A stretch of 64,000 nt of DNA from an uncultured Acidimicrobiia bacterium (GTDB lineage: Bacteria > Acidobacteriota > Terriglobia > Versatilivoradales > Versatilivoraceae), in assembly GCA_963786955.1 (NCBI GenBank), contig CAWBAT010000006.1, positions 448,001 through 512,000 on the forward strand. The letters are read 5' to 3'. Below are positions 33,532-40,687 of the stretch, piece after piece. The notes under the pieces were generated by a model, which worked only from the letters and a program-made list of their open reading frames with translations, made no database searches and was not told where the DNA came from. Both the position numbers and the translations under genes were made by a program. The stretch's first letter is position 1. Each line of letters opens with the position of its first letter.

Positions 33532-34582
<1,051 letters not shown>

Positions 34583-35038: not shown

Positions 35039-35972
35039 ATGAAAATTGCTCTTGACCCATGGATGGTGCGCGACCGATCTCTTGATCAGGTCTGCCAATT
35101 TGCTGCGGAAACCGGCTACCAGTGGATTGAGCTATCCCCTCGCGAAGATTTCTTGCCCTTCTATGTTGCTCCGCAAGCTAACCGAGAGCGCATCACCGAG
35201 TTAAAGCGGGCTTTGCAGCGTCATGGCGTCAATTGGCGTCGCTCTGGACCGTCTATCACTGGTCTGACCCGAGTGATTTAGAGGCTCGCGAAATGGCTGT
35301 TCGCTATTGGAAGCATGCCATCCAGATTGCCGTCGAATTGGAATGCTCTCATCTCAACTCAGAATTCAGTGGCCGCCCGGAATCCGCGAAAAAGAGTCGG
35401 CATCGTTCTGGCGTTCCATGGAGGAACTGGTCCCCATTCTCGATAAAGAAAAAATCACTCTCAGCATTGAGCCCCACCCGGATGATTTCGTGGAAGAAGG
35501 CAATGCGGCGGTGGATATTATCCGGGCTCTCGGGTCGCCACATGTCCGGTATCTTTACTGTGCGCCGCACACCTTCCATATGGGTGGTGACATCTCCGGG
35601 ATGATCCGCTACGCGGCCCGGTGTTGGCGCACGTACACGTTGCCGACACCTTAGATCACCGGATTCCTGTCCGTTACATTGTCAATCCCTCAGGCTCCGA
35701 CAGTACGCATTCATCAACACACTAATATCGGGGAAGGAGAACTGGACTGGGACATATTTTTCCGCACGTTGCAGGAGATCGAGTTTGGCGGAATCATGAC
35801 CAACTCGGTCTTCGCTTGGCCAGACCAGGCAGAGCAGTCAGCACGGCTTATGTTGGAACGAATAAACAGTGTATTTGGCTCAATATCCACCGAGCACAAA
35901 AACTTAGATCAATGGCCGATGAGAATGGAATCGGTAAGCAGTATTAGCCATTTACCCAAGGAGGAGCAATGA
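35039..35972 (+). CDS. Sugar phosphate isomerase/epimerase, IolH-like (several indels)
   Basis: MKIALDPWM, IELSPREDF, IEPHPDDF, YLYCAPHTFH and HQHTNIGEGELDW. Confidence 0.8.
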
Positions 35973-36820
35973 GAGGAAGTTCGATTACGCTGGAAGATTA
36001 CACCCTGGAAGAGGTTGTGCGCATTTTTCGCGACAATGGATTTGATCGGGTGGAAATGTGGAAGCATCAATTGCGGCGTTGTAAAACGGATGAGCTTCGC
36101 CAGAAATTTGCAGCCTACGCTAAGGGAATGGGAATCGCGATGGGTGGGCTGAACGCCGTGGGGGAGGATTATTTCCAGCCGTTTGGGACAGATCAACAAT
36201 TCCAGGCAACATTGGACGGGCTGAAGGCCGACACGGAATTTGCCCTGTCTCTGGGAACCAAGGATGTCTTGATCTGGGAAGGGCGTGCCCCTCAGGGAAG
36301 CACGGAGAGTGAATGGTTGGACCGTTTGCTCCCTCGGCTAGTTGAACTATTACAGTCCGCCATCGCCTTTGCGGCCCCAAGGGCGTGCGTTTGCATGGTC
36401 GAACCGCATCCGTTCACGATAGGAATGAGCGATCGCGTACTCGTAAAATTATGTGACAAGCTGGATTCGGCTCACTTCGGAGTAACGTATGACTTTTGCC
36501 ATTATGGAGTCGGAAGGCCTAAGGACTATGTGACCGCGGTCCATGCTTTAGGGCCGAGAATTCGGCACATTCACTTCTCTGATTCCGACCAAAAAAGTTC
36601 AGAGTTGCATTTCCCCCCCGGGCAGGGCCGAATGGATTTGGAGTCTCTATTGAAGGCATTCAAAAACATCGGTTATGACGGGACCATGGCCTTGGATATG
36701 TATGGGTATCCATTGCCAGTGCAGGCTCTGCCGGGTGCGGCATCTCGAATGCGTGAGGCATGCGAGTTCTTAGGACTGAGGGGTGACGCCTGCCGAAAAG
36801 AGCGGCGCAACGGTCTGTGA
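35969..36820 (+). CDS. Sugar phosphate isomerase/epimerase (AP endonuclease 2 TIM barrel)
   Basis: VEPHP, YDFCHY, HIHFSD and PGQGRMD motifs. Confidence 0.85.
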   Translation: MRGSSITLEDYTLEEVVRIFRDNGFDRVEMWKHQLRRCKTDELRQKFAAYAKGMGIAMGGLNAVGEDYFQPFGTDQQFQATLDGLKADTEFALSLGTKDVLIWEGRAPQGSTESEWLDRLLPRLVELLQSAIAFAAPRACVCMVEPHPFTIGMSDRVLVKLCDKLDSAHFGVTYDFCHYGVGRPKDYVTAVHALGPRIRHIHFSDSDQKSSELHFPPGQGRMDLESLLKAFKNIGYDGTMALDMYGYPLPVQALPGAASRMREACEFLGLRGDACRKERRNGL

Positions 36821-36947
36821 CTGCCCTGTTCTCCGAACTTCACGAGCTGCCAGTGGGATGAACGCGCGTGAGGGACCGGCGTCGCAGAGCTCTGCCCTCC
36901 AGATTGGATTGTCAAGGGCTTGGGGGGAGAAGTCATTAAGGCCCTCA

Positions 36948-38733
36948 TTATTCCCTTTCTCGATCTACAATCAAATCAAAGTCACCTTCCAGTACTCGGT
37001 CGAGTTTGCCGGTTCGCCACCCACGGACACCATCGCGCACCAAAGGCGAGGGATGCTCGCGGTACCGCCGCACTACCGTGAGGTTTGCCGGCCCATGAGA
37101 ATCAAAAGCATGGATCGCTTGCTGACGAAGAGGTTCTAGACCAGGTCCGACGGGCTCATCCGGTTGAGGCACAACACGCACTTGCATCCGGCAACGCTTA
37201 AACGACTTTTCCTCTTGCTCAGGGATCTCTAAAATGTGTAGGCCATCTTCAGGGTGCAGAATCGGAAATGCGGCGAACCCAGACAAGCCAAGAAGGAGAT
37301 GGTAAGGAGTTTTTCCGTCTCCTCCGACTTCTTCGAGAAGTTGAATCTGCATGCGCCGTTTTTCGGCCCAACCGCGGTACATCTTACCCAACCTAACGGC
37401 AAATTCATCATTCAATGATGCCGCCACCCCGGAATCTCTGCTGGCTTGAACCAAGAGAAACGCTTCAGACGGGTGCTTCGTTTGGAGGTTGGAGCAAGCC
37501 TTCTCAAGCAAATACAATTGTTGGGCGAGTCGCTTCATCAAATCGCGAGGAAAGTGCAGTCTATTTTCGTTTCTTCCGCCTGACAAACGCCTTAGCAGCG
37601 ACCCGGCCGTCTCAAATCCTGACTCAATCCGGTCCAAATACTCTACTTTCCCAAGGATCGCAAATCGATCGGACGAGTTCCAAAAATCAGGGCAGGAAAT
37701 TAAGGAAAGTGAATCCATCTTGCTGTCTTGCCATTCTGTGCTTCCTACGATCTGACCCAGCCTTTCATGGTGTGAGCGGAGGCAGCTCATCTCAGGGGAC
37801 GTCCCCAGAGCATCCAGAGCGATCTCCTCTATCTGGACGGCATCATCCGGCTCCACCGCACCCATCACTAAACCAATTCCCTCAGTTGCCGTATCATCGA
37901 CCGCATCAGGATCGACAAATTCAACCCTCAAGTCCTTGCCATCACTTCTGACAAAGAGAAACTGGTCTCCCTCCGGAAATTGATGGTTGACAATCGTATT
38001 GGCTAACGGTGAAAGCAGATAGCGCTCAATCGCACGCTTGAGAGGCCGCGCACCCAAATCAGGCGTAAAGCCTTTTTCGAGGAGGAATTCGGTCGCCGCA
38101 TCGTCACATTCTACGGCCCACGCACGATTCCGTAGTCCGCGACGCTGAAAGACCTCATCGAGTTCTTTGCGCAATATCTCACGCATAGTATCCCGACTGA
38201 GCGGACGAAACACGATTACCCGGTCAATACGATTTAAGAATTCCTTTCGGAAGGAATGATTTACTGCACGCTCCACGGCTGCCGGGTTAAACCTGGAACT
38301 GTCGGGACTGAACCCCAGACTCGCACCGCTTGGAACCGTACCACCAAGGTTGGATGTCATGATGATGGCGTGACGGAAGTCTGCCGTGATCCCACTCCGG
38401 TCGGTGAGTCTTCCATCGTCAAAGACTTGCAGGAAAAGATCCCATATCCTGGAATTCGCTTTCTCAAACTCATCCAATAAAATCACTGAAAACGGCTGCT
38501 TCTGGATGAGCTGAATTCTGATAGTAATCATTCAGTGCAGAGGCTAGGGTGTAAGGTAATGCGAGATCGGGCTTTACCGGCGGCTTCGAGGTAGCATGGT
38601 CCGAAGGTTGAGAACGCGGGAGATCTAACTTGGTCAGCTTTGGTGGAGCTTTCAGCATATGCTGTGAAATTTGCCAGAGCAAGTATAAGAGCCCAAGAAA
38701 AAGGGCCAAAAAAAAGACTTCCGTGCTGCTCAT
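36948..38733 (-). CDS. ClpA/B-like AAA+ ATPase fused to a GGQ-less release-factor-2-like domain; apparent internal deletion near 38500
   Basis: PFSVILLDEFEKA, LQVFDDGRLTD, IIMTSNLG, FRKEFLNRID and GARPLKRAIE, then RF2-like PDFWN, MYRGWAEKRR, EDGLH and VRRY..P..LVRD..GWRTGKLDRVLEGDFD. An N-terminal TM segment lies in ORF 38470..38733 in another frame. No Walker A is present. Confidence 0.78.
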
Positions 38734-39565
38734 AACTCACTCTCTAGGGAAAATCTGGAATAAGAATAGCAGATAGAGTATGCAAATTCAGCAAGTGGAT
38801 TTAGAATTCTCCGCCGGAGTTCCGTACTTGCAATCACAGGTCACCCCTCTGGAAGCTATAGAAGCGAACGCGGCTGGCGACTACAATCAGTAGGCTTCTA
38901 GCGGAACCCATGACTTGCTTAATGAGTTATGATGAGAGTAAGCTGCGAAGAAATGATTTTCAACTAAGTGGTTTTTCATAAAATGAGAAGAAAAGCCACG
39001 GACCCCGATTTCTGGTCCGCGTTACAGCCCGCAAGCCGCAGCGCGGCGGCCTGATTATTGAACCTGAAATTCTATCAGAGGCGAAGCTCCGTCAGGAGCG
39101 ACCCGTTGGCGTTTGTGCTGCGCCGAATCAACGCACAAAGTGGAAATATGACACACGACATACTAAGACTCAACGGCTTCGAGCTCAAATTCTCAAGTGT
39201 AGGAAAGTGTTGGCCCCACAGAGCCGATAAGACCTTAGATCGTATATAATAATTTTGTTTTTTTCAGCAATAGTGTGATGTGCTAACTGAGTTTGGGCGA
39301 GCGTGGGAGCTATACTCATCCATCAACTGAACAGCCAATGAGAAGCATTGGGGAATATCAATAGAAATAGATGCAGACAACCAATCTCGTCTGACGATTT
39401 GAAAAATAACCCATCATGAAACGACCGACTAACATTAAAATTCCAGGATTTGCTCTTTATCCGTCTAGACTGGTTCGAAAAAACAGTTCCTCTGGGTAAC
39501 ATCTCGTCCTTTTGTTCGTAGTCTGTTCCCATTTTTTGAAAAAAACAGAAAGGAGTTTTTATTAG

Positions 39566-40687
39566 ATGCAAATCTCTAACAGTAAGGTCCTCATCACTGG
39601 TGGAGCAGGCTTGATTGGTTCCCACCTTGCTGATGCGCTTCTAACACGAAATTGCCGGGTTAAGCTCCTGGATAGCCTTGAACCCTATACCCATCCACAC
39701 GGAGTACCTGAATGGATCCCTCGGGAAGTGGAGTTTATTTCCGGCAATCTCCGAGATAAGGGCACTCTTGAGGAAGCCCTTCATGACGTGGACTTGGTAT
39801 TCCACCAAGCTGCATTCACCGGATTTGATCCTGAGTCCACACGTTATCTCGATGCAAACACTTTGGGTACTGCACAAATCTTCGACGCCATCGCAGAACA
39901 GCACTTTCCGGTACGAAAAATCATAGTCGCCTCTTCTCTTTCCATCTATGGAGAGGGGAAGTACCAGTGCCAGAACCACGGGGTCAGTTATCCTGAGATG
40001 CGCCCCATAGCAAAGCTCAAGCAACATCATTGGCAGCCTGAGTGTCTTTTGTGTGGCAAGGTCCTAGAATGGCTGCCCACCGACGAAGCGAGTCCTACAC
40101 TGCCCTTCACACCCTACGCAGTCTCTAAGTACGCTGCTGAGCTTCTTGCACTTGCGCTGGGAAAACGGCTGGAGATACCAACCGTAGCGCTTCGTTACGC
40201 TGTGGCCTACGGCCCTCGCCAGTCCATATTTAACGCATACAGCACTGTCATCACTACCTTTGCTACTTTACTGGCTAATGACCGGCCTCCAGTACTCTAC
40301 GAAGATGGCCAGCAATGCCGCGACTGGACGTACGTGGAAGATATCGTCCGCGCAAATCTTTTCGTGATGGAAGACGAGCGTACAAACTACCAATCCTATA
40401 ACGTGGGGACTGGAGAGGCAGGAAGTGTCAGACAAATCGCCGAACTGCTTGCCAAGGGTCTAGGGCGATCTATTGAGCCCGTAACACCTGGGCAGTTTCG
40501 ACCTGGAGACATCAGGAACTTGGTTCTCGACGTCAGCAAGCTGCGGGCTCTTGGTTTCGAGACCCGCTTGTCTTTAGAGGAGGGTATTGCTCGGTTTTTA
40601 ATTTGGTTTCAGTCCTTGGGAAAAGTCCCACAGTACTACTCTATTCTTGAAGAACGAATGCGAACTAGCGGCGAACTCCTCTCTTAA
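39566..40687 (+). CDS. NAD-dependent epimerase/dehydratase with a Cys-rich insertion
   Basis: TGGAGLIG, YAVSK, YGPRQS and FRPGDIR; CxxH..CxxC insert. Confidence 0.92.
   Translation: MQISNSKVLITGGAGLIGSHLADALLTRNCRVKLLDSLEPYTHPHGVPEWIPREVEFISGNLRDKGTLEEALHDVDLVFHQAAFTGFDPESTRYLDANTLGTAQIFDAIAEQHFPVRKIIVASSLSIYGEGKYQCQNHGVSYPEMRPIAKLKQHHWQPECLLCGKVLEWLPTDEASPTLPFTPYAVSKYAAELLALALGKRLEIPTVALRYAVAYGPRQSIFNAYSTVITTFATLLANDRPPVLYEDGQQCRDWTYVEDIVRANLFVMEDERTNYQSYNVGTGEAGSVRQIAELLAKGLGRSIEPVTPGQFRPGDIRNLVLDVSKLRALGFETRLSLEEGIARFLIWFQSLGKVPQYYSILEERMRTSGELLS

Follow-up and report, generated by a model that had tools for sequence, protein, structure and literature searches.

Bacteria rescue stalled ribosomes by several routes, among them tmRNA, ArfA, ArfB, PrfH and RqcH. 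PrfH keeps the catalytic GGQ domain of the release factors, and the AAA+ rings of FtsH and Msp1 are held at the membrane by N-terminal helices. To our knowledge, none of tmRNA, ArfA, ArfB, PrfH and RqcH joins a release-factor (RF)-like module for the ribosomal aminoacyl (A) site to an AAA+ motor, and none is anchored in the membrane. According to a survey of release-factor evolution (PMC6514570), Pelota clears stalled ribosomes together with an ATPase, Vms1 is an RF-like protein that recruits the AAA+ unfoldase Cdc48, PrfH has no domain 1 and is associated with RtcB, and the catalytic domain of release factors is an insertion in the domain that recognizes stop codons. Balon (PMC10901736) is an RF homologue that occupies the A site while lacking both GGQ and a codon motif. 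Here we describe a protein family, Clp-RF, of which a truncated copy lies at 36948–38531 on the minus strand of the DNA analyzed (the window, 64,000 nucleotides of contig CAWBAT010000006.1 from an uncultured bacterium). The family is a new architecture built from a Clp/Hsp100 ATPase and a release-factor paralogue, and it is unnamed and undescribed in the literature searched.

The window copy encodes 527 amino acids in one open reading frame (ORF). We hold, with moderate confidence, that this ORF is the deletion remnant of a Clp-RF2 gene whose intact form would be a membrane-anchored ATPase with an RF2 module that may dock on the ribosomal A site. The C-terminal ∼300 amino acids of the ORF are an RF2 paralogue that keeps domains 1, 2 and 4. 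The parts of the gene are as follows.

36948..38531, minus strand: 3′ remnant of the Clp-RF gene, 527 amino acids, exactly one ORF (ORF list, Pfam, tblastn).
38220..38507, minus strand: back part of the second AAA+ module (D2), residues 9–104 (Pfam AAA_2).
38310..38318, minus strand: LGF tripeptide, residues 72–74, at the position of the ClpC-type ClpP-docking loop, in the context SLGFS.
37962..38201, minus strand: ClpB_D2-small domain, residues 111–190 (Pfam, E 1.2e-18).
37479..37832, minus strand: RF2-like domain 1, a helical bundle with PDFWN, residues ∼234–351 (phmmer, profile, AlphaFold2, VIA-align).
37167..37463, minus strand: RF2-like domain 2, residues ∼357–455 (Pfam, phmmer, alignment A2, AlphaFold2, VIA-align).
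37077..37166, minus strand: connector of ∼30 residues with one helix, in place of the GGQ domain 3 of ∼100 residues (alignment, AlphaFold2, spacing).
36972..37076, minus strand: RF2-like domain 4, VRRYREHPSPLVRD..GWRTGKLDRVLEGDFD (alignment A2, profile, VIA-align).
38470..38733, minus strand: 5′ remnant of the same gene, an ORF of 87 amino acids (40% identical, E 1e-8, to residues 1–79 of the gene product at the syntenic locus L007).
38504..38510, no strand: deletion junction with 7-base microhomology (alignment to a same-genus genome, G002; contig ends in other sequencing runs).

The likeness to RF2 is seen at the levels of family models, single sequences, profiles and structure. Pfam PCRF (PF03462) covers residues 332–440 of the ORF with E 2e-4 and 21.7 bits, narrowly missing its cut-off of 24 bits. 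The NCBIfam model TIGR00020 (prfB) matches residues 295–434 with E 1.3e-7, at 31 bits for the window protein and 35 bits for a relative (locus L056), neither of which reaches the 370-bit cut-off; nothing else specific was returned by the NCBIfam scan of the ORF. In a phmmer search of the last 307 residues against PDB sequences (E≤10), all 34 matches are RF2 or RF1, the best with E 3.1e-6, and PDFWN, FAVRLGKMYRGWAEKRR and GFAAFPILHPEDGLH pair with residues 41–208 of E. coli RF2. We built an alignment (A2) from the C-terminal part of the window protein and 35 relatives (36 sequences), which was the source of both a profile and a structural model. The profile retrieved 41 PDB matches at E≤0.01, every one a release factor, with a best E of 9.3e-17 spanning RF2 residues 5–203. 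Thirty columns of A2 are invariant across its 36 sequences.

The AlphaFold2 model of the module derived from A2 has a mean predicted local distance difference test score (pLDDT) of 92.0 and a predicted template modeling score (pTM) of 0.89. Foldseek gave 51 PDB matches at E≤1e-3 (best 2.2e-13), and all of the matches listed are RF1, RF2 or mtRF. Superposition with VIA-align onto the crystal structure of E. coli RF2 (1gqe) yielded Z 20.4 and a root-mean-square deviation (rmsd) of 4.9 Å for 274 aligned residues, placing model residues 22–303 on RF2 residues 5–360. For full RF1, RF2 and mtRF chains Z ranges from 14.1 to 20.4, and the core of domains 2 and 4 alone fits RF1 and RF2 chains with Z ∼17 and an rmsd of ∼3 Å. 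Designed helical bundles also match, with Z ∼11, on domain 1 of the model only. Domain 2 is composed of the helix FAVRLGKMYRGWAEKRR and the strands GFAAFPIL, GLHILE and QVRVVP. The tail, VRRYRE..VLxGDFD, is weak by sequence, since the second stretch of the profile match, on IRSY..VLDGSLD, scores 3.5 bits; it falls inside the structural alignment with RF2. The genome carries a canonical prfB (438.6 bits, above the cut-off) and a prfA-like gene elsewhere, and the module is therefore an extra paralogue. The match to the canonical prfB (G000:C9:400160-401160, loci L101 and L103) falls into two pieces separated by a stop, an arrangement that presumably reflects the programmed +1 frameshift of prfB.

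The catalytic domain of RF2 is missing from this paralogue. The spacing from GLHV to VRRYR has a median of 55 amino acids (range 38–69, 75 loci), compared with 126 for the equivalent spacing in the genome's own prfB and prfA, where GGQ lies 53 and 52 residues past GVHR, respectively. About 71 residues, the GGQ domain, are thus gone. In the AlphaFold2 model, ∼30 residues with one helix (245–258) link the two strands between which domain 3 would be expected. PF00472 (RF-1, the GGQ domain) has no Pfam match in the window protein or in the intact relatives, and GGQ occurs at the domain-3 position in none of 79 loci; the string itself is found in one of them, at region position 21, in the linker ahead of the RF part. 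The SPF tripeptide, which is present in the genome's own prfB, is absent from all 77 loci compared. Since domain 3 and the SPF loop are lost, the module is unable to hydrolyze peptidyl-tRNA. A preliminary description, made from the letters of this DNA, had proposed an RF2-like C-terminus with elements in RF2 order, in which ∼30 residues replace the GGQ domain and SPF is absent. This proposal is borne out by the profile and structural matches and by the spacing, with the qualification that the tail is weak by sequence alone. The fusion with a Clp module also recurs in other genomes (see below).

The ATPase half was characterized in intact relatives. Among 80 loci, 53 have complete ORFs of 1101–1364 amino acids (median 1145); these lengths were counted from the first start codon and are approximate, perhaps slightly long. 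The layout is ∼260 residues without a listed Pfam match, followed by D1, D2 (AAA_2), D2-small and PCRF, that is, two AAA+ modules with a D2-small domain ahead of the RF part. PCRF is above the Pfam cut-off in four of five intact relatives. A single ClpA alignment spans both rings (residues 265–789 on ClpA 195–720) with 312 bits, against a cut-off of 993. The contiguity and the low score of this alignment indicate that there is no ClpB-type middle domain and that the family has no NCBIfam model of its own.

A hydrophobic N-terminal helix is found in 49 of the 53 complete members (Kyte-Doolittle mean >1.6 over 19 residues). Basic residues follow it and, by the positive-inside rule, the bulk of the protein would be cytoplasmic. 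A model of the N-domain (L056, residues 1–280, pLDDT 86.6) consists of a helix (2–25), a disordered linker and an α-solenoid. Foldseek found no PDB match to it at E≤0.001, and weak armadillo-repeat rows appear at E≥0.04. No Clp_N match in residues 1–260 is among the best 25 Pfam rows listed.

The motifs of the two rings were read over the 53 sequences, with the genome's own ClpB and ClpC as rulers; the names of the D1 and D2 elements are those that we take to apply. D1 keeps its Walker A (GxxGxGKT), and its pore loop, AGQxYIGQLE, keeps the tyrosine. Its Walker B reads LWxVPNFHEL, compared to FIDELH in ClpB and ClpC, such that the Asp-Glu acids are gone. In D2, Walker A, Walker B, sensor 1, the arginine finger and sensor 2 are kept. 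A tripeptide [IVLM]GF, aligned to LGF of the genome's own ClpC, is present in 52 of 53 members, with GF of the loop invariant in 28 of 28; this is a likeness of motif only, and the genome's own ClpB has none. A [LIV]-G-[FL] loop is the element that docks ClpP. When the D2 module and a pair of ClpP chains from one genome were modeled as a complex, the prediction gave no verdict (score 0.01) and counts neither way. A canonical clpP was not found in the genome's own 93%-complete assembly, where the sole match scores 22.6 bits within a frame of 341 residues (L135). The same search gave a match at E≤1e-40 in 29 of 31 genomes, the present one included among the 31. The clpP gene may lie in the unassembled part.

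The window copy retains a fraction of this architecture. AAA_2 is matched from profile position 71 to 165 of 166 (E 2.9e-21), and Walker B (VILLDE, 38469–38486, minus strand) is followed by the sensor-1 TSN and the arginine-finger region FRKEFLNR. Walker A is absent from the ORF, as judged by the AAA_2 alignment and by tblastn with longer homologues. These homologues align to the window only from their residue ∼382–390 on, with nothing matching upstream. A tblastn search of the whole window with six intact or longer homologues and with fragments of L007 gave chance-level matches only (E≥0.058) outside 36963–38531 and a 79-codon 5′ remnant. The 5.65-Mb assembly contains neither a second copy nor an N-terminal half; its remaining matches are ClpB/ClpC paralogues and one broken Clp-like stretch. 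The latter (G000:C6:186429-187253, locus L004) has five TGA and two TAG codons inside the match and looks like another broken AAA+ gene.

Comparison with two related loci located the missing segment. L007 (record title: Terriglobia MAG, metagenome-assembled genome) is syntenic, with two TIM-barrel genes and mreB as neighbors in both, and carries the full length of the gene spread over four frames. The window resembles it over the first 79 residues, including the membrane helix (∼38665–38721), and then again from ..LIRKQPFSV, just ahead of Walker B. G002 belongs to the same genus and is 88% identical in DNA. Window 38877–38500 aligns to 5663–5278 of its locus (L099) and window 38510–36942 to 3639–2066. 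About 1.65 kb of the G002 gene is not in the window, and codon ∼79 is joined to mid-D2 out of frame. The segment that is missing comprises the N-domain (α-solenoid), D1 and the D2 Walker A. The frame of the 5′ remnant, an ORF of 87 residues, ends 11 codons past the junction. The first ∼7 codons of the 527-residue ORF are N-terminal remnant read in the wrong frame, and its ATG, which sits in that remnant, is fortuitous.

The breakpoints lie within an 11-base overlap of the two G002 alignments. Contig ends from other public sequencing runs (X1–X4; contigs of X1 are 99+% alike, those of X2–X4 90–99%) narrow them to 38504–38510, where 7 bases fit both flanks. Contigs of X2 (record 6) and X3 (record 9) match the window down to 38510 and then diverge and continue. 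X3 record 10 and X4 record 13 show the converse, with a match that starts at 38504 and sequence unlike the window on the other side. Read by eye, the loose ends give ..SGSLVD before LIQKQPFSV, and HPDALLNHPKF after ..NSA, which is the family consensus. As they continue as family sequence, strains 90–99% alike keep the undeleted gene, and the retention of undeleted flanks in other runs settles the direction of the event as a deletion. The ratio of nonsynonymous to synonymous substitution rates (dN/dS) against G002 is 0.05 and 0.11 for two stretches of 211 and 284 codons and 0.28 for the 28-codon piece between them (dS ∼0.5), compared to 0.078 for an intact neighbor gene; values against L007 were dropped since synonymous sites were saturated. 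The low ratios indicate that selection acted on the gene until very recently.

The window copy is thus best read as a recent, null deletion allele, with an assembly fault as the main alternative. It cannot be an ATPase, because the N-domain, D1 and the D2 Walker A are deleted. The preliminary description had seen a ClpA/B-type AAA+ module here. The back part of D2 and D2-small are indeed present, but the AAA+ module is a stump without Walker A. The adjective "ATP-driven" fails for this copy, which has neither Walker A nor D1 and bears the 1.65-kb deletion. The suggested membrane tether applies to the family, through the helix in 49 of 53 members, but in the window this helix is encoded in the separate ORF at 38470..38733 (minus strand).

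The copies in the two other genomes of this genus, G002 (L099 2072-5421) and that of L007 (L007 5470-8906), are themselves split over four to five frames while their flanking genes are whole, reflecting either decay of the gene across the genus or error-prone sequence. In G017, of the same family and another genus, the gene is a single open frame up to the contig end. In the window, a single frame change near 34042 divides mreB (33532–34582, minus strand) into two ORFs, each 88–94% identical in protein sequence to the intact mreB of L007, which suggests an indel error of the assembly and not a loss of mreB. A xylose-isomerase-like TIM-barrel gene (35039–35972, plus strand) is spread over about four frames and is intact in L007 at 322 amino acids; the next TIM-barrel gene (35969–36820) is intact. 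Between the 5′ remnant and a divergent epimerase-like gene (39566–40687) lie ∼830 bases (38734–39565) without a convincing ORF, of which only ∼70 (39033–39099) resemble the upstream region of G002. Rfam has no match at E≤0.1 in 36500–39700. Promoter-like sites are at chance level (4 found, 3.1 expected), as are terminator patterns.

The fusion of Clp and RF parts is widespread. With one genome per species, at least 269 of 599 candidate stretches were confirmed as relatives by tblastn, and 386 clusters at 50% identity match at E≤1e-30 among 1.84 billion cluster representatives. All 150 proteins among the matches listed carry the RF-like part at their C-terminus, although the short entries may be fragments, and PF03462 is precomputed on 100 of the 120 best database matches. 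Record titles include Acidobacteriota, Gemmatimonadota, Calditrichota, Planctomycetota, Krumholzibacteriota, KSB1, Hyphomicrobiales and others. The best matches are named "AAA family ATPase", "ClpC", "ATPase family protein", "ATP-dependent Clp protease ATP-binding subunit", "hypothetical protein" or "unnamed protein product". Among 41 related genomes four hold the RF-bearing gene, namely the three of this genus and G017. At L072 (3672-8852), in a MAG with the record title "uncultured Actinomycetes bacterium", the open frame extends over 1726 residues upstream of the stop, compared to 891 for the database protein from a contig of equal length, and is probably over-extended. No paper on a Clp or AAA+ protein fused to a bacterial RF-like domain was found in the full-text literature searched, although the supplementary lists of PMC6514570 might include such architectures; in its main text "Clp" occurs 0 times and AAA+ only with CDC48.

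The gene neighborhood offers no conserved partner. Clustering of 588 ORFs from 79 loci gave no neighbor conserved beyond single lineages, the largest cluster having 16 loci of one lineage. Representatives of eight neighbor clusters are peptidases M48 and S46, an aconitase, a tetratricopeptide-repeat (TPR) response regulator, a metallo-β-lactamase-fold protein, DUF2911, a methyltransferase and one protein without matches; RtcB is not among these eight annotated representatives. An argument from operon structure was rejected, as the neighbor clusters are lineage-specific and housekeeping.

If the intact protein works as its parts suggest, a single N-terminal helix would hold the hexamer at the membrane on its cytoplasmic side, and the N-domain and the entry side of D1 would lie near the bilayer. 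D1 would bind ATP without hydrolyzing it and serve as an assembly ring in which the pore-loop tyrosine is kept, D2 would be the only motor, and the [IVLM]GF loop would dock ClpP. Tethered by a variable acidic stretch of 40–60 residues, the RF2-like module would be the docking or sensor part for the A site and would not read stop codons. Ribosomes, or what hangs on them, would be brought in this way to a membrane-bound unfoldase or protease. We tentatively suggest a ribosome-directed role of this kind, namely stop-codon-independent docking on ribosomes, because the RF domains that remain are all conserved and in order, and because the only partners that we know of for the RF2-type fold are the A site and its factors. 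Balon is a published precedent for an A-site RF homologue that lacks GGQ and the codon motif. A more specific version seems rather unlikely to us: Clp-RF might be a bacterial, covalently fused counterpart of Pelota-ABCE1 or Vms1-Cdc48, anchored in the membrane and coupled to ClpP, whose GGQ-less module would enter, with no codon being read, the A site of ribosomes that are stalled or idle at the membrane, for example at a jammed translocon, after which the ATPase would pull out the nascent chain and degrade it, or strip the ribosome.

Several observations weigh against a deleted gene for a ribosome-docking unfoldase. The D2 segment corresponding to GAPPGYVGYEEGG of ClpB and ClpC is polar and acidic here, with no aromatic residue in 49 of 52 sequences, and such a pore loop argues against ordinary threading into ClpP. 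The SPF loop and GGTEA-type elements read the stop codon in RF2. In A2, a short, variable loop stands at the SPF position, the segment aligned to GGTEA varies freely, and the basic strand GVHRLVR, which we take to contact the decoding center, has turned acidic as GLHVLE, with an invariant Glu (phmmer, A2). The canonical decoding-center contacts may be lost in the module. No ribosome- or translation-related gene is among the conserved neighbors of the 79 loci. As for the deletion itself, no contig of X1–X4 bridges 38504–38510, X1 covering 38200–38434 and 38519–38790 and not 38435–38518, and the assembly has frame errors in mreB (one) and in a TIM-barrel gene (about four). The main rival explanation, which we consider possible if somewhat less than likely, takes up the points on decoding: the RF2-like module would be non-ribosomal, reused for substrate or adaptor binding, regulation or assembly, and the machine would be an unfoldase for quality control of membrane proteins, comparable to FtsH or Msp1. 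The lost or variable decoding motifs, the reversed charge of GLHVLE and the lack of conserved translation genes nearby all favor it, as do an entry face (N-domain and D1) that adjoins the membrane anchor and a model whose nearest match is 1gqe, a compact crystal form of RF2. Such reuse is harder to reconcile with three RF domains retained in order and highly conserved, including domain 1 and the basic motif of domain 4, or with the finding that, apart from designed bundles, every fold match listed is a ribosomal A-site factor.

The state of the window copy allows two further explanations. That the deletion is an assembly artefact, the organism carrying an intact gene for ∼1150 residues, appears improbable. 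The assembly is indeed prone to indels, as the frame errors in mreB and the TIM-barrel gene indicate, the 99+% X1 contigs cover both flanks and skip the junction, the 90–99% alike contigs of X2–X4 have undeleted flanks, and dN/dS is as low as in the intact neighbor gene. However, the loss of 1.65 kb of unique sequence is unlike the usual indel error, and 7 bp of microhomology is the usual mark of a real deletion. It is less probable still, and by a clear step, that the 527-residue ORF is expressed alone as a short, ATPase-dead protein that still uses its RF2-like module. Its 527 open codons, its ATG start and its strong conservation against G002 would fit such a product, but a recent deletion explains the low dN/dS as well, the ATG lies within the out-of-frame 5′ remnant with no Shine-Dalgarno-like sequence ahead of it (by eye), promoter-like sites are at chance level, and an AAA+ fold cut in half and lacking Walker A would probably be unstable. 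The slightest chance of all we give to a role of the family in conflict systems, anti-phage or other, as effector or as sensor; the preliminary description had also considered a conflict-system effector. The patchy spread across phyla, with the gene in four of 41 related genomes, invited this idea, and the PADLOC models DolB and PDC-M37B do match; both match the generic Clp D2 region only, and no specific PADLOC defense-system match was obtained. The absence of a conserved partner gene in 79 loci, the housekeeping character of the neighbors and a purifying selection like that on the housekeeping neighbor also speak against it.

The Clp-RF family, as we read it, joins three oddities in one protein: an RF2 stripped of its catalytic domain, an inactive D1 paired with an active D2 whose pore loop is not aromatic, and a membrane anchor. 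Should the RF module dock on ribosomes, this would be a new route of rescue or quality control; should it not, a release-factor fold would have been reused for another purpose. The window copy is to be annotated as disrupted, be it by a recent deletion or by a fault of the assembly.

Among described proteins, RF2 (PrfB; PF03462 and PF00472) is closest to the C-terminal module. The two share the fold and order of domains 1, 2 and 4, together with the motifs P.FW, MY..WA, G.H, R.Y..P..V.D and VL.GD.D. In contrast to RF2, the Clp-RF module is without domain 3 and GGQ (∼71 residues shorter) and without SPF, has a variable GGTEA segment, and forms the tail of an AAA+ protein of ∼1150 residues. ClpA and ClpC are the nearest relatives of the ATPase part, with the same D1–D2 layout lacking a ClpB-type middle domain, D2-small, the catalytic motifs of D2, and [IVLM]GF at the LGF site of ClpC. 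Clp-RF differs from them in its N-terminal membrane helix and α-solenoid (no listed Pfam match), in its RF2-like C-terminus, in the replaced Walker B acids of D1, in a non-aromatic D2 pore loop that departs from the GYVG motif, and in scoring far under every NCBIfam cut-off.

PrfH (RF-H), which acts on damaged ribosomes with RtcB, is likewise a specialized class-I release-factor paralogue, and its core of domains 2 and 4 is matched with Z 9.4–10.8 (9mq4, 9mor, 7sa4); the Clp-RF module, unlike PrfH, keeps domain 1 and is without GGQ. Balon shares with Clp-RF the loss of GGQ and of the codon-reading motif from a release-factor homologue and occupies the A site (PMC10901736). Balon and Pelota/Dom34-ABCE1, however, have an unrelated fold of the archaeo-eukaryotic RF (aeRF) type and are separate, unfused proteins with no membrane anchor or Clp module. 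In Vms1-Cdc48 the RF part is likewise of the aeRF1 type and the ATPase is bound non-covalently, and FtsH and Msp1 have a single ring and no RF-like part, whereas Clp-RF carries two AAA+ modules and an RF2-like module in one membrane-anchored chain.

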